A stretch of 64,000 bases of DNA from Candidatus Bipolaricaulota bacterium (GCA_028277345.1 JANQGM010000008.1:23573-87572), one strand, 5' to 3'; numbered from the stretch's first letter, positions 28,014 through 59,588 are shown. The notes: a model not told the origin generated them from the letters alone. Program-made: numbers and translations.

Positions 28014-28140
28014 TTCCTGCCCCAGGTTATTCACGAAAACCCCACACAGGATCGATATGGTCTGGGCATTCTTGACGCCGATACCCGAACATGGACAATG
28101 TCTGGGTTGTTTTATGTTGGAGGGCAGAGGAGGCCTGGGT

Positions 28141-30321
28141 ATGACGGAGAAAATCACAGGGGTTCTGGTTGTTGTCTTGATCGCCTGTTCATTGATGGGA
28201 CTGGCGGTTCAGTACCCTCTTACCGTGACCGACCTTGAGGTCGAGGGGAACGACGAGATTCGCTTCAAGGACATCCTGGATACCATTCATTTTAACGTGG
28301 GGTCATCGATCGAAGAGGCCGATCTTCGTGAAGCATCGCAAGCGATCTATGATCTAGGATGGTTCAGTGAGGTGACGCTTGATCGAAACGTGCTCGAAAC
28401 GGGGCGCGTTATCTTTCAGGTCGTCGAGAATCCGGTGATCCGAAAGATCGAGATCTCCGGCAACACGCATCGCCGAGATTTCATGTTCTTCGGGCTCAAG
28501 TTGTTCGACGAGCCGATCATGCCAACCTATCGAATCCGATCCATCCTCTGGGAAAACGATGTGCGTCGGCGCGACGTTCTAAACCGCGATGGACTGACGG
28601 ATGCGCTGGATGAGATCCTCGCCAAATACCGGGAGAGAGGGTATCTCACCGTTTCCGTGGGCAACGTGGAAATGGGTGAAACGCTGAGAATCGAGTTCAT
28701 TGAACACGTGTACGCGGGCAGTCTGATCGAGGGGCTTGTGAATGTCCCTGTCGAGATGGCCGAAGCCATGATTGAGATCCCCACCGGCGAACCGTTGCGG
28801 ATGTCCGACCTGGCTCGCACGAGAATGGATCTCGCGAGTTCCGTGTTCTTCTCCAACGTCGGATTCGATTACCAAGAAGGGCTTGAATCGGATTCGCTTT
28901 GGCTCATCTGGCAGCTCACTGAGCGAACGCTGATTGACGCACCCCTCTCCCTGCAGGCCATCAACTTCGCTGGGAACACCGTCTATTCGGATGCGGTATT
29001 GGCTGACCTCATTCCCACATTGCCTGAGGAACCTGTGGGCAATTACCAGCTTCTTCAGATCATCGAAGGCGTTTATGACCGGTACATCGATTCCGGTTAT
29101 ACGATGCTACGACTTGCGGTCGCTGCGATTGAAGACGGCGTTCTGACGCTTGAGTTAATCGAAGGTGCGATCTCGGAGATTGTGGTGGAGGGAAACACGA
29201 AGACTCGCGACTACGTCATCTCTCGCAACCTCGACTTCGCCGTCGGCGATGTGGCCAATCGCAATGACCTTTTGGTCACGTACCAACAGCTGAATTCGCT
29301 TGGCTATTTCGGCGCCCTTGATCTGGTGCCGGAATGGGGCGAAGAGGGTGTCGTGGTGACCATCACCATTGCTGAGAAGAAGGATATGGGAGGATTCGGT
29401 GGTTCGATGGTGATCGACCCGTCCACTGGCGATCTTCTGGGCGAGCTGTCCTTGAACCAAAAGAATCTGATGGGGACGGGACAGGACCTCGAACTCAGCT
29501 ACAGCCGTGGGCTGGTAGGCACGGATGATATCAAGCCCAGCACATGGAATCTTGGGTACAGCACCGTCGCCTATTTTCCGGAATTCGACCGCGTCGGCGT
29601 TGACCTGTTCCAGACATCGCGTGAAACGACGGTGGACGATGAAGCGGCCGTCAGCATCACCGTCGGTGGGGCGATTTCCTTTAGCTATCCGATTGCCGAG
29701 TACTCGAACTTCGGTCTTGCCTTTCGGCATGAAGAGGAGCGGGTGAATCTGGAAGACCATTGGACGCCCTCCGATGTCGTGACGCTTTCACTGACCTACA
29801 ACAACGCCAATGATCCCTTCTTCCCGACAGAAGGAAGCCGTCGTCAGCTGAAATTTGAGAAGGCTGGAGGATTCAGCGCGGGTCGTGAATACACCAAGTT
29901 CGATTTGACGTGGATTCAGTACGTTCCTTCACCGCTGCCGCTTCTTTCGTCATCCATGGATCAAACGCTGGCCATCCGTGTAAAGGCAGGATGGGGCGAT
30001 GCGACGGTTCCTCTGTCCAAGCAGATGGAGTTGGGGGGATCGACGTCTATCCGGGGTATCGAGGGGAGTCCCTCGCGGCAGTACGTTCTTTCGAACTTCG
30101 AGTACCGGATGGAGCTTGTGGACGGCCTGTACGCCACGGCATTCCTCGATGGAGGGTTCGATTTATCGAAGGTACGAATGGACGATTTACTAAGCTCCTT
30201 TGGGTTCGAATTGGGAATCAATGCAGCGGGTCTGCTGGTGCGGCTCGACTTTGTTTGGGTGCTGGATGAGGACTTTAGCTGGGTTCCTATTTTCGATTTC
30301 GGCATGGGGAGCATGTTCTAG
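28141..30321 (+). CDS. bamA: BamA/Omp85-family outer-membrane protein assembly factor
   Basis: Repeated POTRA-like units (I..I.VEGN..TRD.VI.R) and a C-terminal barrel ending ...FDFGMGSMF. ATG 28141 follows GGAGG. Confidence 0.8.
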   Translation: MTEKITGVLVVVLIACSLMGLAVQYPLTVTDLEVEGNDEIRFKDILDTIHFNVGSSIEEADLREASQAIYDLGWFSEVTLDRNVLETGRVIFQVVENPVIRKIEISGNTHRRDFMFFGLKLFDEPIMPTYRIRSILWENDVRRRDVLNRDGLTDALDEILAKYRERGYLTVSVGNVEMGETLRIEFIEHVYAGSLIEGLVNVPVEMAEAMIEIPTGEPLRMSDLARTRMDLASSVFFSNVGFDYQEGLESDSLWLIWQLTERTLIDAPLSLQAINFAGNTVYSDAVLADLIPTLPEEPVGNYQLLQIIEGVYDRYIDSGYTMLRLAVAAIEDGVLTLELIEGAISEIVVEGNTKTRDYVISRNLDFAVGDVANRNDLLVTYQQLNSLGYFGALDLVPEWGEEGVVVTITIAEKKDMGGFGGSMVIDPSTGDLLGELSLNQKNLMGTGQDLELSYSRGLVGTDDIKPSTWNLGYSTVAYFPEFDRVGVDLFQTSRETTVDDEAAVSITVGGAISFSYPIAEYSNFGLAFRHEEERVNLEDHWTPSDVVTLSLTYNNANDPFFPTEGSRRQLKFEKAGGFSAGREYTKFDLTWIQYVPSPLPLLSSSMDQTLAIRVKAGWGDATVPLSKQMELGGSTSIRGIEGSPSRQYVLSNFEYRMELVDGLYATAFLDGGFDLSKVRMDDLLSSFGFELGINAAGLLVRLDFVWVLDEDFSWVPIFDFGMGSMF

Positions 30322-30411
30322 AATTTCTCTGATGGAGAGGGGGGCTCCCTGATCTGGTGTGTTGGATGCAGAACTCTATAATTGAGGGACGATGGACAAG
30401 GAGGAGAACGT

Positions 30412-31155
30412 ATGTCTCGAAATACATTGGTGGTCGCGGGGTTGGCGCTGATTCTTGCGATTGGCGCATTGGTGCTTCAGTTTGCGCTTCCGTCGGGTGA
30501 TGGAGCCGGGAATGCTGATTTGGATGCCATTCGCGCGGATATCACGCTGCTGAAGCAGTCGGAAGCGTCATCATCGCTGAAAGTTGCCTTGATGGATGCC
30601 GAAGATGCGTTCAACGTGTTTGTGTCCGCCGTAGGCGATTTGCGCCAGCGGATTACGGACAAAACGAGCGAAATCACGGAATTGCAGACGCAATACAATC
30701 AGGGGACGGTGTCACGCGACGATCTGGAACGGCAAAGCTATATCTTGAATGCTGAGTTGCTTGACGCTCGCGTGACCACGGCGGCGGGAACGCTCGATCG
30801 GATGATCGCCTCCGATGACTTCTCTGACATGCGCAGCCAACTGGTGCAACTGCGCGAGCAAGCTCAGCCTATTGTTGAGCAGGTGAATAGCCTTGTCTCG
30901 ACGATCACGGTTGGCGCCATTGATGCTGTGGAATTCCAAAATCGATATCAAGGCCTAACCGCTCTGTTTGAGCAGTTCGACGGCTATGTGACGATTGCAG
31001 CCACGAACAAGCTGATCCAAGCGGCGGAGAAGATCTCGAACGAATACGGTTACGATCTCGTGATTCGCAAGAAGGACGTCCGCATTTATCACAACCCTGC
31101 CACGATCGACGACATCACCGAACTCGTGAAGGCGGAAATCGCCGGGTATCTGTAG
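30412..31155 (+). CDS. OmpH/Skp-like periplasmic chaperone (long form)
   Basis: Signal/anchor MSRNTLVVAGLALILAIGALVL, long coiled-coil-like middle, C-terminal EYGYDLVIRKKDV as in the OmpH family. Sits between bamA and fabZ. Confidence 0.6.
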   Translation: MSRNTLVVAGLALILAIGALVLQFALPSGDGAGNADLDAIRADITLLKQSEASSSLKVALMDAEDAFNVFVSAVGDLRQRITDKTSEITELQTQYNQGTVSRDDLERQSYILNAELLDARVTTAAGTLDRMIASDDFSDMRSQLVQLREQAQPIVEQVNSLVSTITVGAIDAVEFQNRYQGLTALFEQFDGYVTIAATNKLIQAAEKISNEYGYDLVIRKKDVRIYHNPATIDDITELVKAEIAGYL

Positions 31156-41022: not shown

Positions 41023-41110
41023 TGGTACCAGAGGTGGGGGTCGAACCCACACGACCCAAAGGGCCACGGGATTTTGAGTCCCGCGCGTCTGCCAATTCCG
41101 CCACTCTGGC
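41023..41110 (-). tRNA. tRNA-Leu (anticodon CAA), class II with long variable arm, CCA encoded
   Basis: Reverse complement is GCCAGAGTGGCGGAATTGGCAGACGCGCGGGACTCAAAATCCCGTGGCCCTTTGGGTCGTGTGGGTTCGACCCCCACCTCTGGTACCA. Anticodon stem CGGGA/TCCCG with loop CTCAAAA. T arm GTGGG-TTCGACC-CCCAC. Confidence 0.9.
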
Positions 41111-41290: not shown

Positions 41291-41440
41291 CAAGGCTGGG
41301 CAAGTGATTTGTGTGAATAAGTCGCGAATGGCTAAGATGCCGGAAATGCGGAAGGACTAGGGAATTGGGAGAGAAGTCTCTGTGCTTGAATAGACAGCGA
41401 ATGCCCAGAAATGGTAGAGTAGATCTGACAAGAACGTTAC

Positions 41441-41472
41441 CCGGCTCTCCCTGAACTGGGGCCGGTTTTTTT
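41441..41472 (+). terminator. intrinsic-terminator-like hairpin plus U7 tract about 20 nt upstream of the giant ORF (attenuator candidate)
   Basis: CCGGC-TCT-CCC-TGAACT-GGG-GCCGG followed by TTTTTTT. No upstream plus-strand gene for it to terminate. Confidence 0.45.
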
Positions 41473-41493: not shown

Positions 41494-44400
41494 ATGGAGG
41501 AGGGCATGGTGTCACACAGGAGGGCAAGCTTCATCACGGTCTGTTTATTGCTGCTCGGAGGCATTGTAGTCTCTGCCGCGCAGCCGGTGATTGTCGACAT
41601 CTCAATTCCGGATGCATCCATGAAGATCGGAGACGTGGTCACCGCCACGATTACCGTTCAGTCGGATCCAGCGATTTACACCCTGAATGCGAGCAATATC
41701 GGCGGCTATGCCCTCAGCGGCCTGAGCAAGCAAAGCGACACCAGTTACTTTGCAGAGTTCACCATCTCCTCCGGCGGAACGGACTATGCGGCAGCCGCCG
41801 ATATCCCGACAGACATCACGCTTGCCGATGGCGGAGATTTGGGTCTATGGAACACACCCATCTCCCAAGCGAACGATTTGATAGACGCCAATGTCCCGAC
41901 GGACCCGACACCGACGAGTTCGAGCCATGCCGTGAGTGTGTGGGATGATGACAACACCATCGACATTCAAATCTCGGGAGCGAGCGATTCGGGGAGTGGT
42001 GTTGACGGATTCGAGATCGAATGGGACCAGTCCGCCACCTGGACGCCGTCTGAGACGAAAGAGCAGGAAGAGACGTGGTCCGGAGCCACCTTCACGGCGA
42101 CCTCGGATGGCGATTGGTACTTTCACATCGCCACGGTGGACAACGCGGGGAATTGGACGAGCACAGAGCACCTTGGGCCCTTCCAGATCGATACGGCACC
42201 GCCGTCTGTACCGACGGGACTGAGCCCGGCCAGCGGGAGTACGACGAGCGATACGTCCCCAATCCTTTCTTGGAGCGCATCGACGGACACCGGAGGAAGC
42301 GGAATTCGCGACACGGATGCGTATCGAATCGTGGTGACGGGACCGGTGAACCGCGATACCTACGTCTCGGATACCGACTACAATCCCTCGCTTGCGGAAG
42401 GCACGTTCACGTGGAAGGTCTATGCCCGGGACAATGCTGGGAATGTCAGCAGCTATTCCGCGGATACGACCCTGGTCATCGATACCACATCGCCGGATGT
42501 GACCATCAACGAGGCGGGGGCGCAAGACGACCCGACCAATGCCTCGCCCGTGGTCTTTACCGTCGTCTTCGATGAGCCGATCAACGACGCGACGTTCACA
42601 AATGTGGATGTGAGCGTGGGAGGAACAGCGACGACGGGAACGGTGACCGTGACTGAGGTTGCCCCGAACGATGACACCACCTTTGAAGTCAGCATTGTCG
42701 TGACCGCAGATGGAACCGTCGTTCCGTCAATCCCTGCGGGGGGCGTCGAGGACGTGGCCGGCAACACGAACACAGTCTCGACCAGTACAGACAATTCGGT
42801 GACCTATGATGCTACCGATCCCACCGATCCCACACCCTCCAGCTCCAGCCATACCGTCAGCGTGCCCTCCAACGACAACACGATCGACATTGGTATCTCA
42901 GGCGCCAGCGATACAGGAAGCGGCGTGGATGGATTTGAAATCGAGTGGGATAAGTCTGCAACATGGACGCCGACTGAGACCAAGGAGCAGGAAGAAAACT
43001 GGGCCGGTGCAACCTTCACCGCGACATCGGACGGGGATTGGTACTTCCACATCGCCACGGTGGACAACGCTGGCAATTGGACCAGTACGCAGCATCTGGG
43101 TCCGTTCTCGATCGACACCGATCCTCCAGGCGTCACGGTCGATATTGTCGATGCATCCCTCAGTGATTCGGACAACAGCTCGCTGGTGACCTTCGAGTTC
43201 GACGAGGACGTGCAGAACTTCACGATCGATGATCTGACACCGACCCACGGGACGTTGAGTTCGTTTATCACCATCGACGCGGACAGCTATACTGTCGTCT
43301 TCACAGCCACAGATGGAATCGATGCAACGGGGTCCGTGGCTGTGGGGGCGGGAACCTATACCGATCTCGTAGGCAACAACGGTGAAGCTGGCTCTGACAC
43401 GGTCGACATCGATACTGAGGATCCTCAAATCAATGACCTTGTTCTTAACGACACGCTGATCTCCGAGTCGGATACCCCCGGAGATGGAACACTTGAGATC
43501 GTGATCCTGTGCTCCGAAGCCATGGATGAAACAATCACGCCGCTCCTTATCTTCGATCCAACGGTCGCGAGCACCTTGACCTGGGATTCGGGGGGCTGGG
43601 ATGATTCATCAACCTATCGTGCCTACTACGATGTCGCAGATGGAGATGTCGAGGAAGACACCGTCACCATCGATGTCGCGGGATTGAGGGATCTGGCTGG
43701 TAACGAGCAGCAAGACATGCCGCCATGGTTCTCGATCGAGATCGATACCGTCAAACCTTCGGTATCGAGCGTGACTGTCGATACGGATCCCGTTTATGAT
43801 GGCGACCTTACGCAAGTCGTCACCGTAACATTTGACGAAGCCATGCTCGACAACGGAACAGCGGACCCGAGCATCAGCTTCGGATCGGGAAGCTGGACGA
43901 GCAATGCCGATGGCGCGTACAACGGAGCCGACACGATTTGGACGGAAACGTTTACGCTAACAGACAGTAATCAAGATGTGTCGAATGTCACTGTTGATGT
44001 AATGGGGGCCAAGGACGCGGCAGGAAACGATCAAGAGAACTATGTGGCGCAAGCTGAGTTCGATATCAATACCTTGAACCCGACGGTTACATCGATTGTC
44101 CGTGCGGATGCCAACCCAACCAACGCTGCTTCCGTCGATTTCACGGTGACGTTATCTGAGTCCGTGTCAGGAGTGACCTCAGCCAATTTCTCTTTGGACA
44201 GTACGTGTGGATGCGAGACGATCGACAGCGTGAGTGGTTCCGGCACAACGTGGGCCGTGACCGTCTTAACAGCGGACAACGAGGATTACGTAGTTGGCAT
44301 TGATCTCGACAGCGACCTTTCGTCCATCACGGATGATGCAGGCAACGAGCTTGAGGATGCATTCACGGCTGGCGAGGAGTACGAGGTGGATCGTGAGGAT

Positions 44401-47400
44401 CCGAACATCACAACAGTGTTGATCTCGCGAAGCGGGGAGACATTGAATGATGATTTCGTCGGCAGTGAGCTCTATGTGTCCATCGCGCTTGATGACGAGA
44501 TTGACCAAACGTCCATCCCCTCCATTACGTTCTCTGCGGATGTCAGCGGTACGCTGACCTACGATCGCGTGTCGTGGGGGACGCATTCTTGCAGTGTCTA
44601 CTACACGATTGGTGATGGAAACGAGGAGATTGATGGCGTCGGAGTGTGGACGATTTCCAATGTCTTCGACCATGTTGGGAACCCGGTGAACAACATCAAC
44701 TATGGTACCGACGAATTCGACATCGACAATGAAAATCCCTCGGTGAGTTCGGTGAGCTTTTCCCCTGATTTGATTGCCGATGCTGACGATGGCTCGTACT
44801 TCTACGTTAGCATCTCCTTCGATGAGGACATGGGATCTGCGAGACCCTTCATCGTATTCGTTCCGGGCCATGGATCGACGCTTTCCCCCTACATGGATGG
44901 ATGGCTCGGCGGGAGCTTTACGGCCGAATACGAGATCCATGATCGAGATGTCGACTTCGATTCGGTGACCATCACGATCACGGGGGCTGAAGATGAGCAT
45001 GGAAACGACATGCAAGCCTATACCCCGGAACCGGATGAGTGGTTCGAGATTGATACCGAGAATCCGACAGTGGCCGCTGTAACGGTCGACGACACGCTGC
45101 TCAGCGACTCGGATGCGGGGACGACGCTAACGGTGACGGTGGACTTTTCGGAGAACATGACCGACGACGGATCGGAAGACCCGGCGCTGACGTTTGCGCC
45201 GACGGTGGGCTCGACGCTGTCCTTTTCCAGCGACAGTTGGCCGAGCGCGACGCGGTATCGTGCGGTGTACGACATCTCGGACGCGGGAGTGGACGTGGAC
45301 TCGGTGACGATTGATGTGGAAGGCGCCGAGGATGCCAATGGCAACGATCAGCAGGATTACACACCGGAAAGTGAGTTTGAGATCGACACGCTGAATCCGG
45401 TGGTGTCGATGCTGACGCTGTCAGACGATGAGATCACGGATGCGGATGTGGGGAATACGTTCACGGTGACAGTGGACTTCAGCGAAGACATGATTGCGGG
45501 GACGGTGCCGAGCATCGTCTTCTCTCCGAATCTGGATACGACGCTGCAGGCGGATGCGGGCAGCAGCGGCTGGACGGCGGACGATGTCTACGTGTTCGCG
45601 TACACCATTCTGGACGGCAACGTGACCGTGCTGGACGACGACATCACGATCTCCAATGCTCAGGATCTGGCCGGCAACGTACAGGTCATCTACAACTACA
45701 ACGACCAACTGGACGTGGACACGGAGAACCCGTACTTCCACGACTTCACGGTGACGGGTGGAGCGGTGGATGCGGATTGTCTGCGCGTAGTGACGTTTAC
45801 AGCGAAGGTCACGGATCCCAATGGTACGATGGTTCCCGGAGACATCACCGTGACGGCGGCATCGGTGACGAATACGGCGGCCGGGATCACGGCGGGCGAT
45901 GTGTACGACATCCAGCAAACCAGCGATAACCAAACGACGATTACGATTACCGGCAAGGTGGATATTGAGGATCTAACGGACTGTCCGGCGCGGGTGACGA
46001 TTACGCTGGATGCGGTGGACAGCGTGGACAACGACGCAGCCCAGCAGTCACAGTCCGACGATGTGGTGGATACCACGATTCCCACCATCGACGATCTTCG
46101 GTTCGATACGGATGATACGCATGCGGCCGAACAAACGGTACCGTACCTGGTGGACGAGTGCGGTCGCGTGGTGGTGTACTTCTCGGCGACGATCAACGAC
46201 AACTGCTGCATCGACGATGGCAACGTGACGGTCGATGTGACGTTGCCATTGCTGGCAGGAGAAGGCGACGCCGTGCTGGAGGATATTGACGTTGAGCTGA
46301 CACAGAACGGCCAGAACCAGGTGTTGATGACGGGCAGCGCGGTAGTGCGATGTCTGGAGAGCGTGACGCCGCGGCCGAATCCGGCCGGGCTGTCGCGAGT
46401 GCAGATTGACGTGGCTGCCTACGACTGCTGCGGCAATGATGCCGTGTCCGTGGAAACGGGCACCGGCGAGGGGCTGGTGGATGACGAGATTCTCCCGATT
46501 CCGCGAGACGATCCGAGACAAGACATGGTGATGGATGAGAGCGCCATTGCTGATGAGAACTTGTTGCTGAAGGTGCGATTGGACGAATTTGGCGTTTACA
46601 GGCTTGTATTGCGAGAAAACACCCCGGTGCGCATCGATCTGCTGGCCAACGACGCCGACAACCTGACGCACAATGTGGGCCATCCATTTGGACCATGTGT
46701 GGCGTGCGGTCCTTGTGGCGGCCAGACGGGGTGCTGTGCCGAGATCTTCGTGTACGAGATTGTGCAGCATCCGACGTTTGGTACCGCGGAGATCATCGAT
46801 GACTCCGGAGACTGCGGCGGTGGCAGCGTCATTCGTTTCGCGCCGGACCGCGGCTACTTGGGTCCCGACTTCTTCACCTACCGCATCGTGGATGCATTTG
46901 GGAACGTGTCCGATGTGATCGCCACCGTGTACCTGCAAACGGTGCCGGAAGTGTGGGTCGAGGACATCTTTGTGGTGGCATGTGGCGATGAAACGACCGA
47001 GTTCAGCTTACCGGTGTCGGATCTGTTCATCGACATCGAGGATCCGAGCCGGATCCCGTTTGAGTTTGAGATCTTGGCTGGCCCGAGTCATGGCGTGGTG
47101 ACGGGGAGTGTGCAGAACATCGACTACGCGCCGCCGAGCACGGTGACCGATCCGCAGTTTGGCGTGCAGGTGCCGTCGTTGGACTTCACCGAGACAGCGA
47201 TTCTGAACATGAGTTACACGCCGGCGGATGGATTTGAGGGCCGAGATCTGATCCGCGTGCAGATTAGCGACCCGTTTGGAGGATCGGCGATTGCCGTGGT
47301 GGACTTTGCCGTGGGCGCGTGCGGTCCAGCGGCAGCGGGGGAAGCGATCCTGAAGCTGGCCGGCAACCAGATCCTGCCAATGCTGCTGCCGGGGCCGGTG

Positions 47401-47622
47401 GGTGAAGCGTTGATGGCGGATCCCAGCGTGGTGCTGCTGCGCGACGTGGAGACGGGTACACTCTATGCGGAGGCGCTGGCAATCGGATGGGACGAGGAGG
47501 CACGAGCCTACGTTCTGATGATCGATGGATCGAAGCTGCCGTACGACATCTACGAGTTGGTGATTCCGTTGGATGGCGGCGAAGCGGTGACGTTGCAGTT
47601 GGAAGTGGGTGAGGCCGAGTGA
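41494..47622 (+). CDS. giant secreted multi-Ig/Fn3/cadherin-like repeat surface protein (2042 aa)
   Basis: Signal peptide (ASFITVCLLLLGGIVVSAAQP) and about 17-18 modules of roughly 100-115 aa, many joined by D-x-x-x-P junctions. DNAGN-type motifs. The true start may be 41506 or 41509, closer to GGAGGAGGG. Confidence 0.9.
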   Translation: MEEGMVSHRRASFITVCLLLLGGIVVSAAQPVIVDISIPDASMKIGDVVTATITVQSDPAIYTLNASNIGGYALSGLSKQSDTSYFAEFTISSGGTDYAAAADIPTDITLADGGDLGLWNTPISQANDLIDANVPTDPTPTSSSHAVSVWDDDNTIDIQISGASDSGSGVDGFEIEWDQSATWTPSETKEQEETWSGATFTATSDGDWYFHIATVDNAGNWTSTEHLGPFQIDTAPPSVPTGLSPASGSTTSDTSPILSWSASTDTGGSGIRDTDAYRIVVTGPVNRDTYVSDTDYNPSLAEGTFTWKVYARDNAGNVSSYSADTTLVIDTTSPDVTINEAGAQDDPTNASPVVFTVVFDEPINDATFTNVDVSVGGTATTGTVTVTEVAPNDDTTFEVSIVVTADGTVVPSIPAGGVEDVAGNTNTVSTSTDNSVTYDATDPTDPTPSSSSHTVSVPSNDNTIDIGISGASDTGSGVDGFEIEWDKSATWTPTETKEQEENWAGATFTATSDGDWYFHIATVDNAGNWTSTQHLGPFSIDTDPPGVTVDIVDASLSDSDNSSLVTFEFDEDVQNFTIDDLTPTHGTLSSFITIDADSYTVVFTATDGIDATGSVAVGAGTYTDLVGNNGEAGSDTVDIDTEDPQINDLVLNDTLISESDTPGDGTLEIVILCSEAMDETITPLLIFDPTVASTLTWDSGGWDDSSTYRAYYDVADGDVEEDTVTIDVAGLRDLAGNEQQDMPPWFSIEIDTVKPSVSSVTVDTDPVYDGDLTQVVTVTFDEAMLDNGTADPSISFGSGSWTSNADGAYNGADTIWTETFTLTDSNQDVSNVTVDVMGAKDAAGNDQENYVAQAEFDINTLNPTVTSIVRADANPTNAASVDFTVTLSESVSGVTSANFSLDSTCGCETIDSVSGSGTTWAVTVLTADNEDYVVGIDLDSDLSSITDDAGNELEDAFTAGEEYEVDREDPNITTVLISRSGETLNDDFVGSELYVSIALDDEIDQTSIPSITFSADVSGTLTYDRVSWGTHSCSVYYTIGDGNEEIDGVGVWTISNVFDHVGNPVNNINYGTDEFDIDNENPSVSSVSFSPDLIADADDGSYFYVSISFDEDMGSARPFIVFVPGHGSTLSPYMDGWLGGSFTAEYEIHDRDVDFDSVTITITGAEDEHGNDMQAYTPEPDEWFEIDTENPTVAAVTVDDTLLSDSDAGTTLTVTVDFSENMTDDGSEDPALTFAPTVGSTLSFSSDSWPSATRYRAVYDISDAGVDVDSVTIDVEGAEDANGNDQQDYTPESEFEIDTLNPVVSMLTLSDDEITDADVGNTFTVTVDFSEDMIAGTVPSIVFSPNLDTTLQADAGSSGWTADDVYVFAYTILDGNVTVLDDDITISNAQDLAGNVQVIYNYNDQLDVDTENPYFHDFTVTGGAVDADCLRVVTFTAKVTDPNGTMVPGDITVTAASVTNTAAGITAGDVYDIQQTSDNQTTITITGKVDIEDLTDCPARVTITLDAVDSVDNDAAQQSQSDDVVDTTIPTIDDLRFDTDDTHAAEQTVPYLVDECGRVVVYFSATINDNCCIDDGNVTVDVTLPLLAGEGDAVLEDIDVELTQNGQNQVLMTGSAVVRCLESVTPRPNPAGLSRVQIDVAAYDCCGNDAVSVETGTGEGLVDDEILPIPRDDPRQDMVMDESAIADENLLLKVRLDEFGVYRLVLRENTPVRIDLLANDADNLTHNVGHPFGPCVACGPCGGQTGCCAEIFVYEIVQHPTFGTAEIIDDSGDCGGGSVIRFAPDRGYLGPDFFTYRIVDAFGNVSDVIATVYLQTVPEVWVEDIFVVACGDETTEFSLPVSDLFIDIEDPSRIPFEFEILAGPSHGVVTGSVQNIDYAPPSTVTDPQFGVQVPSLDFTETAILNMSYTPADGFEGRDLIRVQISDPFGGSAIAVVDFAVGACGPAAAGEAILKLAGNQILPMLLPGPVGEALMADPSVVLLRDVETGTLYAEALAIGWDEEARAYVLMIDGSKLPYDIYELVIPLDGGEAVTLQLEVGEAE
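41902..42201 (+). repeat. intragenic duplicated module, copy 1 (aa 137-236)
   Basis: DPTPTSSSHAVSV...SGVDGFEIEWDQSATWTPSETKEQEETWSGATFTATSDGDWYFHIATVDNAGNWTSTEHLGPFQIDTAPP. Confidence 0.85.
42823..43128 (+). repeat. intragenic duplicated module, copy 2 (aa 444-545)
   Basis: DPTPSSSSHTVSV...SGVDGFEIEWDKSATWTPTETKEQEENWAGATFTATSDGDWYFHIATVDNAGNWTSTQHLGPFSIDTDPP. About 85% aa identity to copy 1 by eye. Confidence 0.85.
43114..45732 (+). repeat. array of eight diverged ~105-115-aa Ig-like modules (aa 541-1413)
   Basis: Junctions IDTDPP, IDTEDP, IDTVKP, INTLNP, VDREDP, IDNENP, IDTENP, IDTLNP and VDTENP recur at regular intervals. Confidence 0.75.
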
Positions 47623-49160
47623 AGGTGCGCGTAGGGTGGCTTGCCGGACTTCTATTGCTGACTATCACGCTGCTGGGGACGGCCAACAGCGCTCCGTCGA
47701 TGGATGACGAGTATGTGCTGACGACGCGCGAAACGGCGACGGAGATCGTTCTGAAGGCGACGGACGCCGATATTGCGGTTGCGATGCCGGAGGCGCATCG
47801 AATGGCGTTCTATGTGATCGCGGGTCCGGAACACGGTATCTTGGTGGGCGAACTGACCGATGTGATCTACAGCGATCCAAAGACGGTATCGGTGGTGCTG
47901 ACGTACGTCCCGGCGGACGGGTTCTTGGGAACGGACACGATCCACGTTGAAGTGGTGGACCCGTTTGGTGAAGCGGACGCCGCCATTGTGCAAATCGACG
48001 TGCAAGAGCAGCGGATTCCCGGGGTGCTGGCAGGGAACTGGACGAGTGAAGTGACCTACATTGTGAGCCCTGGGCCGGCGCAGAGCGCCGGGTTCACGGC
48101 GTTTCGTTCCATGTTCACCGAGTCGTATCGCATTGGGGCGCTGACGTTGAAGAGCGTGGCGTCGTTGCAGATGGAGATTGACGGCATCATCAAGGACATG
48201 ACATTCGATTCGTTGCGGTTCGACAGCCACATTTCGCTGACATCGATTGACCTGCGTTCGACGTTGTCGTTTGATCCGGATGCCGATGTATGGGCGGATG
48301 TGTTTGACTACTTCTTGAACACGACGCGATGGAGCATTGGGGGACTGGATCTCACGCATACGTGGTACGTGTTGAACACACAGACGGATTCGTACCAATC
48401 GCTGAACGCGGCCGTGAACCTGGGCATCTTCCGGCTGAACAACTTGACGCGGTTCAACCTGGACCCGAGCTGTCACTATGTGTTCTCCAGCAACATGAGT
48501 TCGTTGTACTGGTCGTGGTGCGACGTGCCGATGTCGGCGCAGTTCTCGATCACGGATGCGGGCTTCAACTACGCGCAAGTGAGTGCAAGTTCGATTCCGA
48601 TCGAGCGTTGGGCCTGGTTGCCGGAGGGATTGTATGCCAACACGTCGCTTCGGTTTGATCTGAGTTCTGGAAAGGTGTTTACGGCGTCATTTGGATGGCG
48701 GCCGATGCAGATTGGGTGTGTGGAGATCTTCGCGGAATTGGATCTGGATGGTCCGGGAGCGGGGCCGGTGACCAGCGATACGATCATTGACGGGATCAGT
48801 GTGTATGGGATGCGGATTAGCTGCAGCATTCCTGGGACGTACGGGGACGTGCGGGTGGTGTCGGCGACCTCGTTTGTTGACAGCAAGAACTCGACGGTGA
48901 CGGGGCAGTCGGACTATTTTGAAGTGATCCGGCTGAGCGGACCGATGGGGTCGTGCTGCGGGTATCCGGGGACGTGGAGTGTGGCCACGTACTTCAACGA
49001 GGCCGAGACGGGGGTGCTGTTTGACTGGGGGATGACGGTGATCGGTGCGGATGTGAACATCTCGGATCACTTTACGGGGTACATTGAGACGGTGTTTAGG
49101 TCGGAGTACTTTGATGATCCGCGGATGGAGATTACGTTGGGTTGGACGGCGCGGTGGTAG
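47619..49160 (+). CDS. secreted protein: N-terminal Ig/cadherin-like module plus ~400-aa putative outer-membrane beta-barrel domain
   Basis: GTGA overlap with the giant ORF. Signal peptide MKVRVGWLAGLLLLTITLLGTANS. The module is homologous to the distal modules of the giant protein. The C-terminus MEITLGWTARW has alternating hydrophobics and a terminal aromatic. Confidence 0.8.
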   Translation: MKVRVGWLAGLLLLTITLLGTANSAPSMDDEYVLTTRETATEIVLKATDADIAVAMPEAHRMAFYVIAGPEHGILVGELTDVIYSDPKTVSVVLTYVPADGFLGTDTIHVEVVDPFGEADAAIVQIDVQEQRIPGVLAGNWTSEVTYIVSPGPAQSAGFTAFRSMFTESYRIGALTLKSVASLQMEIDGIIKDMTFDSLRFDSHISLTSIDLRSTLSFDPDADVWADVFDYFLNTTRWSIGGLDLTHTWYVLNTQTDSYQSLNAAVNLGIFRLNNLTRFNLDPSCHYVFSSNMSSLYWSWCDVPMSAQFSITDAGFNYAQVSASSIPIERWAWLPEGLYANTSLRFDLSSGKVFTASFGWRPMQIGCVEIFAELDLDGPGAGPVTSDTIIDGISVYGMRISCSIPGTYGDVRVVSATSFVDSKNSTVTGQSDYFEVIRLSGPMGSCCGYPGTWSVATYFNEAETGVLFDWGMTVIGADVNISDHFTGYIETVFRSEYFDDPRMEITLGWTARW

Positions 49161-49242: not shown

Positions 49243-49265
49243 GCGCCCCGTGTACAACGGGGCGC
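49243..49265. terminator. GC-rich hairpin between convergent genes (barrel partner and pgl)
   Basis: GCGCCCCG-TGTACAA-CGGGGCGC. No clean U-tract on either side. Confidence 0.45.
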
Positions 49266-55661: not shown

Positions 55662-56420
55662 CTATCCAGGTCCCAAGGCATCGGGGTCGAAGGATTCCGG
55701 AGGGAGCGCTTCTGTCCCGATGTCCAAGATTTCGGATGTCGTGATCCGCCCGATGAGCAGCTGATTGACGATTCGCTGCATGGTCACGTAAACGTCTGTC
55801 TCGTCGCGGGTCTCGTAAACCTCGTAGAACACCTCGTAGAAAGGAATGCCGCTCACCGCGTACAACATGGCGGAGATGGGAGTGAGCGTGGAGGCATCCA
55901 CCTTGACCGTGACGACTTGGAAGGCGACCGTGAAATCGATGGCGGCAAGGTCGATCTCCAGGATCTCCTCGCCCTCTTCGTTTACCACGGACCGACGCTC
56001 CTCGATGGTGTACGAATCGGCAAATCGAATGCCGCTTGTTTGGGCGACAGCGGAATCGCCGAAGACTTCGGTGGTCGCGCTGGTCTTGATCGGAAAATCC
56101 AAGTCGGGGCCGTAGAAATAGGTGGCGTCCGGCGTGGAGAGGAAGATTTGTCCGGCCAGTTCCTCGGGCGCGTCAAACGAAATCCGCGCAAACGAGCCGT
56201 CCTCGGTATCGAGGAACGACAGATTGAGCGACGCTTCGCGCGTTTCATCCGGTGTTTCGGACACGATTCGAACGGCGATCTGGGTCACGGTTTCATCGAA
56301 GAACCGTACCTCATCCAGCCTCGTTAGCAACTCGAGGTCCGAGAGGTCTTGGGAGGACGCCGATACAACGGGCAACAACGCAAGGGTGACGAGCAGGGTC
56401 ATAGCGATCGATCGTTTCAT
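55662..56420 (-). CDS. LolA-like outer-membrane lipoprotein-sorting family protein
   Basis: 252 aa from MKRSIAMTLLVTLALLPVVSASSQ (AGGAG SD). Beta-rich, last gene of the FtsX/ABC operon. The track's 412-aa version was trimmed. Confidence 0.65.
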   Translation of the reverse strand: MKRSIAMTLLVTLALLPVVSASSQDLSDLELLTRLDEVRFFDETVTQIAVRIVSETPDETREASLNLSFLDTEDGSFARISFDAPEELAGQIFLSTPDATYFYGPDLDFPIKTSATTEVFGDSAVAQTSGIRFADSYTIEERRSVVNEEGEEILEIDLAAIDFTVAFQVVTVKVDASTLTPISAMLYAVSGIPFYEVFYEVYETRDETDVYVTMQRIVNQLLIGRITTSEILDIGTEALPPESFDPDALGPG

Positions 56421-56437
56421 GATTCTCCTTTCCTCGG

Positions 56438-57649
56438 TCAGATGCTCCTCAACGCATCGACAATCTGAATGCGAGAATTGCGCCAAGAGGGGAACGTCGA
56501 ACTCAACAACGTGGATACCAGGACGGTGACGATCGGCATCAAGATAACTTGGGTTCCCAGCCGAAGTTGAATGGCCTGAGGGATCGCAGCTCCCGGCGGC
56601 GTCCAGGTGAAGCCGATGGCATTGAAACTGAGCAGAAGAATGGCGCTCAAGATTGCGCCAAGGACGGCGCCGATGACGCCGAGAAATGCGCCTTCCAGCA
56701 AGAATGAGCGAAAGATTCGTCCGCGCTGCGTCCCAAAGGCGCGAAGTGTGCCGATTTCCCGGCTGCGCTCGAGGAACGAAATCGTGAGCACTTCCAACAC
56801 GCTGAAAAAGACGAGGACGGCGATACCGATCATGGCCAATCCCGAGAAGGCCGCATAGAACGATCGGATCGATTCGTACGATGCATTCAATTCTTCCCAC
56901 GTCCGGGTCACCAACGGAATGCCGGCTGCATCCAATCGGGCTTGCAGGGCGGCGGCAAAGGCATCGGAATCATCAAGGTCCTCAAGACCAATGAGAATGC
57001 GCTCTACACCGTCCGTCTTCAGCAATCTCTGAACGAACGAGATGGGGAAAAGTCCCAGTTGACTTTCAAGATCCTCAAACGCATAGGTCATTTCACCGCT
57101 CACATCGACGGTGGCGGCATTGAAGTTTCCGGACACCGTCCCGGTCGCGATGTTGATCCGGTCGCCCGGAACGACGCCAAGCTTTCGCGCCAACGCGCTT
57201 CCGAGAACGACCTGGCGATCGGACATCTCCTCCAGCGGGTCGCCGGCGATGACGATGCATTCGTAGTCCTGAACATCGCTGCAGGGGACGACGCCTTGGC
57301 CGATGATGAGCGTGCTCCCTTCTTCGTTGCCGACCAATCCGGCGAAGTTCAATTGCCACGAGACGCCAATGACCCCATCGAGTGTCGAGGCTTCCAGGAT
57401 CACGCGATCGAGAGTTTCGGGTGAAATGAGGTAGTCGTAATCGCTTGATGTGTTCTCAAACAGTCCTTCGCTGGCCACTTGCACGGCTCCCGATTCGCTA
57501 GCGAGCGATTCCTTGGTCGACTGAAGGGCTTCTTGAACGAATCCCAGAACCGAGACGAGGACGAGGAACCCAATGACGATCACGGCCAGGCTGAAGGCGG
57601 TGCGGCGCCGGTTCCGGAACACATTTCTCAGTGCGCTCTTCACTTGCAT
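56438..57649 (-). CDS. ABC transporter permease, FtsX/MacB-LolE type
   Basis: N-terminus ALRNVFRNRRRTAFS, a large periplasmic domain, then the C-terminal FtsX 3-TM bundle (REIGTLRAFG). Confidence 0.85.
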   Translation of the reverse strand: MQVKSALRNVFRNRRRTAFSLAVIVIGFLVLVSVLGFVQEALQSTKESLASESGAVQVASEGLFENTSSDYDYLISPETLDRVILEASTLDGVIGVSWQLNFAGLVGNEEGSTLIIGQGVVPCSDVQDYECIVIAGDPLEEMSDRQVVLGSALARKLGVVPGDRINIATGTVSGNFNAATVDVSGEMTYAFEDLESQLGLFPISFVQRLLKTDGVERILIGLEDLDDSDAFAAALQARLDAAGIPLVTRTWEELNASYESIRSFYAAFSGLAMIGIAVLVFFSVLEVLTISFLERSREIGTLRAFGTQRGRIFRSFLLEGAFLGVIGAVLGAILSAILLLSFNAIGFTWTPPGAAIPQAIQLRLGTQVILMPIVTVLVSTLLSSTFPSWRNSRIQIVDALRSI

Positions 57650-57661
57650 CTCGCCTCCTTT

Positions 57662-58873
57662 CTAATTGACCCTCAGGGCGTCGACCACGCGGATTCCCGA
57701 GGTTTGGATCGCGGGGAACACGGCGGAGAGTAACGTCGAAACCACGCCCACCAAGAAGGGCGGCGCCGCCGTCAGCAATCCCAATCGAACGGCCAGCACA
57801 CTGGTTTCAACCGTGCCCGGCGGCTGCCATTCGATCCCCAACGCGTTGAACCCCCATCCCATGAGCACGCCCGTCAAGACGCCGGCTGCGCTTCCGATCA
57901 AGGCCAGCCACGCGCTTTCAATGAGAAGCTGGCGAAACACCTCGGAGCGGGTGGTCCCCAATGCACGAAGGGTTCCGATCTCTCGTGTTCTCTCCAGGAA
58001 GGCGAGCGTCAGTACCTGAAGGATGATGAAGAATACGAGGATGAACACGGCCAAGGTGAGGAATCCAAACAAGAGATCGAAAAACCCCGACAGTTGCTGA
58101 TAAATCGCCGATAATTCAAACCACGTGCGGACGTCGAGTTCGATGGAGGCACGATCCAGCTGGCTGACGATCGCTTCCTTGGCGTCATCCGTTGCCGAAA
58201 TCGACTCCAGCCCGACGATCAATCGTTCGACGCCCCGGGTTCCCAGAAGAAGCTGGGCAAAGGACTGGGGCATGAACAAGGTTTGTAGCTCGACTTGTTC
58301 CGAGGTGAACTTGTAGATCCCCACGATCCGTAGCGGCGTTGCGTTGTAGGCGCCGTTGACTGTCGTGAGGGTCAAGGTGACGACATCGTCAACGTGGAGT
58401 CCCAGGCGGTCGGCCAGAGAGCGCCCCATCAGGATGCTGGCGACATCGGTTTCGTCCAGCGGTCGGCCTTTGAAAACCAGCTTGTCCGCATTCAGGACCG
58501 AATTGCCGGGGACTTGAGCGGTCACGCGGACGACTTGTGTCTGCTTGCCCGAGGCGATCAGGCCGGGGAATTGAAGCTGGGTTGTGATGCCGGTCACTGC
58601 TGCGTGTTGGGAGAGCAGATTGCGAACCTGCGCCTCGCGCTCCGGGTCGATGAGGTAGTCGTAGCCGTCTGCCGTGTCGTCAAAAAGATCGGCTGAGGCG
58701 AGCTGGAGGTTCCCGTACTCATTGACGGCGGCGGCTTGGATCTGAAGACGGGAATCTTCCAAGAAGCCGTAGACAAACAAGGAGATGGCCGTCCCTAAGG
58801 CGATGATGGCGACAGAAAGGAGCGTGCGGCGACGGTTACGCAGCAGGCTGCGAAGCGGTATCCACCACGTCAT
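57662..58873 (-). CDS. ABC transporter permease, FtsX/MacB-LolE type (second copy)
   Basis: LRSLLRNRRRTLLS, REIGTLRALG. ATG 58873 follows GGAGG. Confidence 0.85.
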   Translation of the reverse strand: MTWWIPLRSLLRNRRRTLLSVAIIALGTAISLFVYGFLEDSRLQIQAAAVNEYGNLQLASADLFDDTADGYDYLIDPEREAQVRNLLSQHAAVTGITTQLQFPGLIASGKQTQVVRVTAQVPGNSVLNADKLVFKGRPLDETDVASILMGRSLADRLGLHVDDVVTLTLTTVNGAYNATPLRIVGIYKFTSEQVELQTLFMPQSFAQLLLGTRGVERLIVGLESISATDDAKEAIVSQLDRASIELDVRTWFELSAIYQQLSGFFDLLFGFLTLAVFILVFFIILQVLTLAFLERTREIGTLRALGTTRSEVFRQLLIESAWLALIGSAAGVLTGVLMGWGFNALGIEWQPPGTVETSVLAVRLGLLTAAPPFLVGVVSTLLSAVFPAIQTSGIRVVDALRVN

Positions 58874-59588
58874 GGGCGCCTCCTTCCTGCAAACAACCAT
58901 CGTGAATGCGGATTTGACGCCGCGCGTACTGGGTCACGGCGGGGTCATGCGTGACGACGATGAACACCACGCAGTGTTCTTCGTTCAGCGTTCGCATGAG
59001 ATTCATCACTTGCGCGCCGGTTTCCGAATCCAGATTGGCGGTGGGTTCATCGGCGAGGACGAGTTTCGGCTGAGTGATGAGCGCTCGCGCGATGGCAATA
59101 CGCTGCCTCTGCCCGCCGGACAGCTCATTGGGCCGTCGCCGGGCGAGATCCCGCAACCCGACTTCTCCCAAGATGGCGTCGACGCGCTTTGCCCGCTCCG
59201 ATTTGGACAGCTTCTGAAGCAGAAGGGGATATTCGGCATTCTCTGCCGCCGACAACACGGGAATGAGGTTGAAGGTTTGAAAGATGAGGCCGATTTTCTC
59301 TTTCCGAAGCTGGGCCAGTTGCTTTTCGTTGAGCGTGTTCGTCGAGACGCCTTCGACCACAACCTCGCCTTCTGTTGGGCGATCGATGGCGGAGATCAGG
59401 TTGAGAAAAGTTGTTTTTCCACTTCCGGACGGCCCGTTGATGACCACGAAGTCGCCTTGCGCCGCCGTGAAATCGACATCCCTGAGCGCATAGACCGTCG
59501 ACCCTCCCACTTGGTAGGTCTTCGTCAGGCGCTGCGCCTCCAGGAACGAACGTCCCTGTTCATGACAAAACTGACTTATAGTTCCCAT
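58836..59588 (-). CDS. ABC transporter ATP-binding protein (LolD/MacB-type)
   Basis: GPSGSGKTT, LSGGQRQRIAIARAL, LVLADEPT. Confidence 0.9.
   Translation of the reverse strand: MGTISQFCHEQGRSFLEAQRLTKTYQVGGSTVYALRDVDFTAAQGDFVVINGPSGSGKTTFLNLISAIDRPTEGEVVVEGVSTNTLNEKQLAQLRKEKIGLIFQTFNLIPVLSAAENAEYPLLLQKLSKSERAKRVDAILGEVGLRDLARRRPNELSGGQRQRIAIARALITQPKLVLADEPTANLDSETGAQVMNLMRTLNEEHCVVFIVVTHDPAVTQYARRQIRIHDGCLQEGGAHDVVDTASQPAA

Follow-up and report, generated by a model that had tools for sequence, protein, structure and literature searches.

Overlapping genes for a giant immunoglobulin-repeat protein and a predicted outer-membrane barrel form a candidate fibre-plus-barrel envelope module in Bipolaricaulota

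A 64,000-nucleotide (nt) stretch of DNA from a Candidatus Bipolaricaulota bacterium (GCA_028277345.1 JANQGM010000008.1:23573-87572), referred to here as the window, carries two overlapping genes on the plus strand. The first encodes a giant protein of 2042 amino acids (aa) made up of immunoglobulin (Ig)-like repeats, and the second encodes a 513-aa partner that is predicted to form an outer-membrane beta-barrel. The GTG start codon of the partner lies on the TGA stop codon of the giant, giving an overlap of 4 nt (GTGA). An earlier note on this DNA, prepared by a model from the sequence alone, had proposed the pair as an undescribed two-gene anchoring or export module, and its coordinates and translations for both open reading frames (ORFs) agree with those obtained here. 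The features of the locus are listed in Table 1.

Table 1. Features of the giant/partner locus and its flanks, in window coordinates (AF2, AlphaFold2; pLDDT, predicted local distance difference test score; A1 and A3, alignments)
Feature	Coordinates	Strand	Evidence and remarks
Giant Ig-repeat fibre gene	41494..47622	+	ATG start, 2042 aa; ORF and translation, Pfam Big_12/Big_9/Big_13
Sec-type signal peptide of giant, residues 1-29 (...VVSAA/QP)	41494..41580	+	read from sequence; orthologue conservation
N-terminal "head" of giant, residues ~30-334	41581..42495	+	64% identity to L003 orthologue
Stalk of giant, ~13 tandem Ig-like modules (Big_12/Big_13-type)	42496..46413	+	D[TN]xxP linkers, Pfam
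First Big_9-type module of giant, with Cys-rich insertion	46591..46938	+	alignment A3
Last Big_9 module of giant, residues 1822-1941	46957..47316	+	BLASTP, Pfam; closest to the Ig domain of the partner
C-terminal beta-sandwich of giant, ~95 aa (...IPLGxGExVxLxxEVGEAE)	47326..47619	+	AF2 pLDDT 83-94
Partner gene, predicted outer-membrane barrel protein	47619..49160	+	GTG start, 513 aa; 47 close homologues
Putative signal peptide of partner, residues 1-25 (...GTANSA/P)	47619..47693	+	by inspection; hydrophobic N-terminus conserved in A1
Big_9 Ig-like domain of partner, residues 26-129	47694..48005	+	Pfam; AF2 pLDDT ~90
Predicted 22-strand beta-barrel, residues 136-513, uncurated Omp-beta-like family	48024..49157	+	AF2, Foldseek, hhalign
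C-terminal beta-signal-like motif E-I-T-L-G-W-T-A-R-W	49128..49157	+	conserved in A1
Promoter-like site TAGACA-18-TAGAGT, 5' of giant gene	41391..41420	+	consensus scan, 9/12 matches
tRNA-Leu(caa), flank on the giant side	41023-41110	-	tRNA call
G+C-rich hairpin GCGCCCCGT/ACGGGGCGC, 9 bp, between convergent partner and pgl genes	49243..49265	.	
BamA, 754 aa, outside the giant/partner operon	28057..30321	+	Pfam, POTRA 86 bits and Omp85 64 bits

The mature giant, of ~213 kDa and with a pI of ~4, is very acidic and lysine-poor (D, 12.7%; K, 0.65%). Its single hydrophobic stretch spans residues 11 to 35, with a SAA/QP junction, and the orthologue in L003 has an identical AA/QPVI junction at its putative signal-peptide end. 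Pfam recognized four Big_12 and two Big_9 domains (28.5 bits against a cut-off of 23.6), together with three sub-threshold Big_13 matches; the NCBIfam matches were all sub-threshold. Because a BLAST comparison of the giant with itself returned no repeat pairs, its modules were counted from the periodicity of their linkers. Eleven D[TN]xxP linkers, 97 to 112 aa apart, together with the terminal domains give ~18 modules, close to the 17 to 18 counted in the earlier note. A unit of ~95 aa at residues ~140 to 233 recurs almost unchanged at ~447 to 541.

The two ends of the giant are conserved differently. Relative to the L003 orthologue, the identity is 64% in the head and 44% over the C-terminal 1000 aa. 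In L005 and L008, unrelated sequence replaces the head, which is therefore lineage-specific. The number of stalk modules also varies among orthologues, whose lengths in L003, L005, and L008 range 1.6-fold, from 1344 to 2117 aa. Over the C-terminal 600 to 1000 residues, the orthologues are collinear, and their conserved end comprises two Big_9 modules, the first of which carries a Cys-rich insertion, followed by a ~95-aa beta-sandwich. The insertion, CxxCxxCx5CC at residues 1735 to 1748 (C-V-A-C-G-P-C-GGQTG-C-C; 46696-46740), is kept in most orthologues and shortened in some (P0055 and P0057). It was modeled with low confidence in an AF2 fragment and might form either a metal site or a disulfide knot. 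The terminal beta-sandwich is present in all orthologues and is still detectable in the distant pair of L026 (independent E value [iE], 3.6e-5); it is the candidate docking end of the fibre. When the C-terminal model was searched with Foldseek, only generic tandem Ig/cadherin matches were returned (RET, titin, PrgB, and SbsB/SbsC).

As the earlier note had stated, no recognized sorting signal was found in the giant. Motif searches for LPxTG, GGxGxD, and NPNL/NPNG and for a C-terminal hydrophobic stretch were negative. In the Pfam and NCBIfam scans, the giant contained none of the S-layer homology (SLH), two-partner secretion (TPS), autotransporter, RTX, Por_Secre_tail, and PEP-CTERM-type families; LysM, OmpA-like, and other cell-wall-binding domains were likewise absent, and no membrane anchor is left after signal cleavage. 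An RTX adhesin of the type I secretion system (LapA/SiiE type) is ruled out by the N-terminal Sec-type signal and the lack of GGxGxD. Cargo of the type IX secretion system, LPXTG, and other C-terminal sorting readings are ruled out by the same scans and motif searches.

The partner begins with a domain of the same kind as the end of the giant. Pfam placed Big_9 on residues 23 to 126 (25.6 bits against a gathering cut-off of 23.6), and this domain aligned with giant residues 1822 to 1941 (BLASTP E, 1e-13; 26% identity), which bears out the homology to the distal modules of the giant that had been read from the sequence. No Pfam or NCBIfam family matched residues 130 to 513. With an alignment of 26 partner homologues (A1) as input, AF2 produced a model with a mean pLDDT of 83.4 and a predicted template modeling score (pTM) of 0.56. 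It starts with a signal-like helix at residues 2 to 21, and a linker of ~6 residues joins the Ig domain to the first of 22 antiparallel strands, each of 8 to 17 residues, between residues 136 and 512. The turns are mostly 2 to 4 residues on one side, and the loops are longer on the other.

The model resembles outer-membrane proteins. Foldseek gave 151 matches in the PDB at an E value of ≤1e-3, and 49 of the 50 listed were outer-membrane barrels with E values of ~1e-6, including porins, OprD/Occ channels, TonB-dependent receptors, the FimD usher, and LptD. The best query-normalized TM-scores were those of the TonB-dependent receptor Cir (0.43) and FimD (0.41). Since the TM-scores ranged from 0.2 to 0.43 and the identities from 7 to 12%, the match is to a fold class and not to a specific family; the barrel profile had no match at an E value of ≤10 among all PDB sequences. 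The strands have one hydrophobic and one polar face: averaged over the alignment, their dyad hydrophobicity, the difference between alternate positions, was 2.36 Kyte-Doolittle units versus 1.14 ± 0.18 for shuffled strands, and none of 1000 shuffles reached it. The C-terminus fits the beta-signal pattern of the beta-barrel assembly machinery (BAM), namely, polar-x-G-x-x-hydrophobic-x-aromatic, with R512 and W513 invariant and G508 nearly invariant in A1. Thus, the partner is predicted to be a 22-strand, transmembrane-type outer-membrane barrel, as the earlier note had suspected from its strand-like sequence and last residues, and not a soluble sandwich or propeller. The strongest conservation across the barrel superfamily lies in one patch, residues 424 to 472 (~48888-49034), with NSxVTGQxDYFE, an invariant Cys-Cys-Gly, and then PGxWSxATYF and LFDWGM. 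Because this patch is common to the SLH-associated barrels described below, it is a hallmark of the family and not a fibre-specific site.

The pairing of the two genes is conserved across Bipolaricaulota. We found 47 close homologues of the partner, of 480 to 510 aa, whose named sources were Candidatus Bipolaricaulota (Acetothermia) metagenome-assembled genomes, apart from a few that carried the labels Atribacteria, Dehalococcoidia, or "uncultured Thermotogae." Among seven looked-up places and 14 genome loci, the upstream sequence was long enough to be informative in 18. Every one of these has a large ORF whose end falls at the start of the partner gene or a short way before it, across partner identities from 52% down to 32%. 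These giant ORFs are 1043 to 2117 aa long where complete, and the others end at a contig edge. The 4-nt overlap recurs in five of the seven looked-up places (L001, L002, L003, L005, and L008); in the remaining loci, the two genes overlap or lie within ~90 nt of each other. Wherever the flanks could be read, the order was that of the window, with ftsQ-ftsA-ftsZ, the giant, the partner, and a convergent pentose-phosphate operon. Since both the barrel fold and the synteny held, the proposal that the giant Ig fibre has a dedicated barrel partner stands.

The shared Ig domain fared differently. The earlier note had taken it as a docking-type domain common to both proteins of the module, but the partners in L022 and L023 (34 to 35% identity) are barrel-only, with the signal peptide running straight into the first strand (SGSW...). 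Their genes still abut or overlap a giant gene with the same C-terminal architecture. The constant part of the module thus does not include the Ig domain, which is an addition. In L016 (6612-9092), the stop-to-stop frame that contains the partner has 827 codons, with the barrel beginning at codon 464; perhaps this partner has additional N-terminal domains, or else the frame merely happens to be open upstream. A small PKD-domain protein is encoded a few kilobases from the pair in L003 (17935-18570). A full-text literature search found no paper describing the giant/barrel pair.

Beyond the close homologues, the barrel belongs to a large family. When 1.84 billion representatives were searched with a profile of the barrel alone (A2), 398 clusters matched at an E value of ≤1e-3 and 96 at ≤1e-30. 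Among the best 150, 94 members were complete: 36 were barrel-only, 33 had about one N-terminal domain, 14 had about two, and 11 had longer extensions. The last residue was W or F in 91 of the 94. Pfam recognized no family over the barrel in ten diverse members, and their N-terminal extensions were Big_9/cadherin-like or DUF11/DUF7507 (CLIPPER) domains.

The neighbourhoods of seven distant members, with barrels at E values of 1e-21 to 1e-80 against the profile, were then read, and a giant repeat gene adjoined the barrel in four of them. For P0145 (L009), the barrel lies directly downstream of a 4964-aa CLIPPER/CARDB/SdrD_B protein. The gene upstream of the barrel encodes a DUF11 protein with at least 1693 aa for P0107 (L104) and a DUF7507/HYR/LTD/Big_9 protein with at least 840 aa for P0085 (L026). 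The C-terminal domain of this last protein is the one that matches that of the window giant. For P0195 (L025, 8740-14839), the order is reversed, with the barrel first and a 1616-aa Big_12/HYR fibre gene second; 3 kb upstream, this locus also encodes a 1966-aa protein of ~15 Big_9-like repeats. In P0110 (L010), fibre-type domains are fused N-terminally to the barrel and no giant lies nearby.

A different type of neighbour was found for P0166 (L027), where the gene directly upstream of the barrel encodes a protein of 230 aa. This protein combines a signal peptide and an SLH domain with a coiled-coil-like middle and a hydrophobic helix at the C-terminus, which is the architecture of Omp-alpha. 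In L027, L056, and L093, the protein encoded upstream of the barrel had an SLH score above the Pfam cut-off. When metagenomes were scanned with an alignment of this subgroup (A5), 76 loci were obtained, 23 of which had an Omp-alpha-like ORF immediately upstream of the barrel. A comparison of A2 with A5 by hhalign (probability, 100%; E, 2e-53; 339 columns) showed that the partner barrels are homologous to the SLH-associated barrels. In L028, L042, L043, L044, L046, L054, and L083, the SLH-associated subgroup is represented by two or three tandem barrel paralogues on the same strand. Small PKD-domain proteins are encoded just downstream of SLH-protein/barrel pairs in L065 (2404-3327), L082 (6223-7083), L089 (7363-8169), and L095 (2424-3611).

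The closest known system is thus the bipartite Omp-alpha/Omp-beta tether of Thermotogae, Bipolaricaulota, and Fraserbacteria. Bipolaricaulota have been reported to be diderm with a toga (bioRxiv 10.1101/2021.05.31.446380; bioRxiv 10.1101/2025.11.21.689855) and to have a split OmpM tether of the Omp-alpha/Omp-beta type, like Thermotogae, with an SLH protein and a barrel encoded by adjacent genes (bioRxiv 10.1101/2021.05.31.446380; see also PMC10160955). The phylum of that tether is the phylum of the window module. Both consist of adjacent genes, fibre first and barrel second, whose products have Sec signals, putative ones in the window, and the window barrel is homologous over its full length to barrels encoded downstream of proteins with an SLH domain, a coiled coil, and a C-terminal helix. 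The earlier note knew of no described family with this layout, a statement that has to be given up in view of this tether and the homology of the barrels. That homology runs through SLH-associated barrels without an assigned phylum and not through Omp-beta of Thermotoga maritima (TM0476) itself; the Thermotoga barrels are reported to be without homologues in other phyla (PMC10160955). Unlike the tether, the window fibre is a 2042-aa Ig chain without an SLH domain, a coiled coil, or a C-terminal helix, and the window barrel has an additional Big_9 domain. The best-supported reading of these relations is that the giant/barrel module is a paralogous variant of the SLH-fibre/barrel pair in which an Ig fibre replaces the coiled-coil tether. 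As such, the pair looks like an undescribed second fibre-plus-barrel envelope module.

Other systems resemble the pair less closely. OmpM/SlpA of diderm Terrabacteria shares an outer-membrane barrel with an N-terminal, periplasmic non-barrel domain and the setting of a deep-branching diderm envelope, but in the window pair no SLH domain was found in either protein by Pfam or NCBIfam, the fibre is a separate polypeptide, and the barrel profile has no match among PDB sequences at the threshold given above. Autotransporters of type Va and type Ve (intimin/invasin) also combine an outer-membrane barrel with a bacterial Ig-like stalk and share the Sec export and BAM insertion proposed for the pair. 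Their barrels, however, are 12-stranded and covalently joined to the passenger, whereas the window pair has 22 predicted strands and two polypeptides; neither protein matched the IAT_beta or Autotransporter families of Pfam and NCBIfam. The split inverse autotransporter with which the layout had been compared is thus not borne out, with 22 strands rather than 12 or 16 and no POTRA, TPS, or IAT family match.

Chaperone-usher systems (FimD/PapC) share a large barrel that has Ig-like accessory domains and acts on Ig-fold substrates. In contrast, the window pair shows neither an usher match in Pfam nor a neighbouring gene for a PapD-like chaperone, its substrate would be one giant chain of complete Ig domains and not donor-strand-exchanged pilins, and the FimD match (7% identity) is a generic one. 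Type 11 secretion (Slam/DUF560) and TPS (TpsA/TpsB) likewise place an outer-membrane barrel gene beside a gene for a dedicated, Sec-exported cargo, but the strand number and the family differ, and no DUF560, POTRA, Omp85, or TPS-domain match was found in the window pair. By the Pfam and NCBIfam scans and motif searches, autotransporter, inverse autotransporter, TPS, and usher readings are ruled out.

On balance, we hold with modest confidence that the pair is a translationally coupled, two-gene envelope module of Bipolaricaulota, in which a giant fibre of ~18 Ig domains is held by a cognate Omp-beta-like outer-membrane barrel. According to this model, both proteins would be made in coupled amounts from one mRNA and exported by Sec. 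BamA would insert the partner as a ~22-strand barrel into the outer membrane, that is, the toga, by means of the C-terminal ...GWxxRW beta-signal. The conserved C-terminal end of the fibre, with its two Big_9 modules and the ~95-aa terminal domain, would be held at the barrel, either by the N-terminal Big_9 domain at the periplasmic rim or, where this domain is absent, in or on the barrel itself. The variable stalk, ~60 to 70 nm if extended, would project from the membrane, most likely outward, and carry the lineage-specific head. In this picture, the anatomy of the genes, their coupling, the predicted barrel, its family relations, and the synteny are results, whereas Sec export, BAM insertion, fibre-barrel contact, and the outward orientation are inferred. 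An outward orientation is favoured because the stalk families (Big_9, Big_12, Big_13, and CLIPPER) are those of adhesins, the stalk length varies, and the composition is very acidic and lysine-poor. CLIPPER/DUF11 domains are typical stalk-formers of fibrillar adhesins (bioRxiv 10.1101/2025.04.25.650565).

Several points weigh against this model. The contact between fibre and barrel is deduced from the genes and a predicted monomer structure. In a model of such moderate pTM, the closure of the barrel, the size of its lumen, and the position of the Ig domain are predictions, and known barrels match it with low TM-scores. The N-terminal domain of an outer-membrane barrel usually lies in the periplasm (compare OmpM, BamA, and LptD), so the Ig domain of the partner should face the periplasm, and a periplasmic fibre fits as well as a threaded one. 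No export route across the outer membrane was identified for a Sec substrate of this mass. The putative docking Ig domain is absent from the two barrel-only partners. In addition, a gene order that is conserved within one phylum can persist without physical interaction.

A first alternative, which we regard as rather unlikely, is that the barrel is mainly a dedicated translocon, similar to an usher or a split autotransporter. Ig modules, folded or partly so, would pass singly through the wide, ~22-strand lumen, with the Big_9 domain acting as a plug or periplasmic receiver and the C-terminal module of the fibre as a stopper. In favour of such a role, the barrel is of large size, and the fibre, a Sec substrate by its signal, carries no known signal for crossing the outer membrane; its neighbourhood encodes no other export system. 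The two barrels with the highest query-normalized TM-scores, Cir and FimD, are large and plugged, the short linker keeps the Ig domain close to the first strand, and the N-terminal fusion of fibre-type domains to the barrel in L010 is the arrangement of a classical autotransporter. However, the pair lacks Pfam matches to usher, chaperone, TPS, POTRA, and autotransporter families, and periplasmic SLH/coiled-coil proteins, for which export is unnecessary, are the partners of homologous barrels. The barrel-only partners in L022 and L023 are without the supposed plug, and the width of the lumen is a prediction.

A second alternative, which we consider improbable, keeps the fibre inside the cell envelope. 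Hung from the Big_9 domain of the barrel in a wide, toga-type periplasm, it would bridge the outer membrane and the cell body as a spacer or tether and would be an Ig analogue of Omp-alpha. The usual periplasmic location of the N-terminal domains of barrels agrees with this, as does the pairing of barrels of this family with periplasmic, Omp-alpha-like fibres. The periplasm of T. maritima is ~70 nm wide laterally and wider at the poles (PMC10160955), and strain J31, the first cultured member of Bipolaricaulota, has long toga-like polar extensions and a hexagonal surface lattice (bioRxiv 10.1101/2025.11.21.689855). In every locus with a readable upstream flank, the module occupies a core-genome site after the dcw cluster; because it follows ftsQAZ, such a fibre might possibly be linked to division. 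A periplasmic fibre is disfavoured by the absence from the giant of SLH, LysM, OmpA-like, and other cell-wall-binding domains and of any membrane anchor once the signal is cleaved. Furthermore, the domain families of the giant and of the fibre proteins of distant pairs (CLIPPER, SdrD_B, and HYR) are typical of surface adhesin stalks, and the stalk length varies 1.6-fold among orthologues.

It is very improbable that there is no physical partnership, with the 513-aa protein being a general porin or toga lattice protein, the giant an independent surface or S-layer protein, and the adjacency a matter of inherited order and co-expression: the close family is confined to one phylum with a collinear neighbourhood (ftsZ ... 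rpiA), the most conserved barrel motifs (CCG and LFDWG) are common to barrels with other neighbours, and some family members occur alone or in tandem, but the 4-nt overlap is kept over deep divergence, the last Big_9 module of the fibre has a copy in the Ig domain of the partner, fibre genes of differing domain make-up adjoin unrelated, distant family members, and the C-terminal domain of the fibre co-occurs with the barrel in the distant pair of L026.

How diderm Terrabacteria build and decorate their envelopes without lipopolysaccharide, Tol-Pal, and classical secretion systems is an open question that bears on models of early envelope evolution. Here, the giant/barrel module is a core-genome feature of the whole phylum, right after the division cluster. 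It defines a large, 398-cluster barrel family without a Pfam or NCBIfam model or a solved relative, and this family connects the SLH tether with the anchoring of giant, adhesin-type fibres. More speculatively, and rather unlikely as a whole, Omp-beta-like barrels could be the core of an unrecognized Sec- and BAM-dependent surface-fibre system in deep-branching diderms, serving both export and retention. The ~22-strand barrel would pass the Ig chain and hold its C-terminal module, and the tether (Omp-alpha/Omp-beta and OmpM) and the anchoring of giant adhesin-like or S-layer-like fibres would be two uses of one ancestral "fibre + barrel" device. Should the barrel indeed also export the fibre, this would be a new secretion route across the outer membrane. 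The C-terminal module of the fibre and the barrel offer concrete experimental targets in the recently cultured strain J31.

At the 5' end of the pair, the signals are less clear. Because a consensus scan of the region found 7 promoter-like sites against 4.2 ± 1.9 expected, the site upstream of the giant gene is weak evidence for a promoter. A short hairpin followed by a run of seven T residues at 41449-41472, ~25 nt before the start of the giant, resembles a leader terminator or attenuator; it had no Rfam match, and its folding energy was not better than that of shuffled sequences (z = 0.77). Between ATG 41494 and a second ATG at 41506, 4 codons downstream, stands GGAGGAGGG. Because GGAGGAGGG lies just upstream of 41506, this second ATG (MVSHRR...) may be the true start of the giant in place of 41494.

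The flanks are those described in the earlier note, with a tRNA gene on one side and a pentose-phosphate operon behind a hairpin on the other. The upstream flank of the pair also encodes ftsQAZ, and the downstream flank encodes pgl, zwf, and rpiA, convergent to the partner gene. The intervening hairpin has no T-run and was missed by the terminator scan. Of the two outer-membrane assembly genes that the earlier note placed in the window, bamA was confirmed by its POTRA and Omp85 domains; skp was not, since the ORF after bamA (30382-31155) showed an OmpH/Skp match below the Pfam cut-off (23.7 versus 32.4 bits), restricted to its last 50 residues. An 877-aa ORF at 12412-15045 was rejected as BamA because it belongs to the S41 peptidase family. 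No secretion-system family was found in the flanks of the pair, as had been claimed, and the PADLOC defence-system library gave no match. The nearest ABC system, of the MacB/FtsX and LolA-like type, lies ~6.5 kb away on the other strand (55662-59588). A cluster of a LolA-like protein, two MacB/FtsX permeases, and an ABC ATPase is kept a few kilobases downstream in L001, L006, and L008 and may be related to the "pABC permease" system of the toga noted in Thermotoga.

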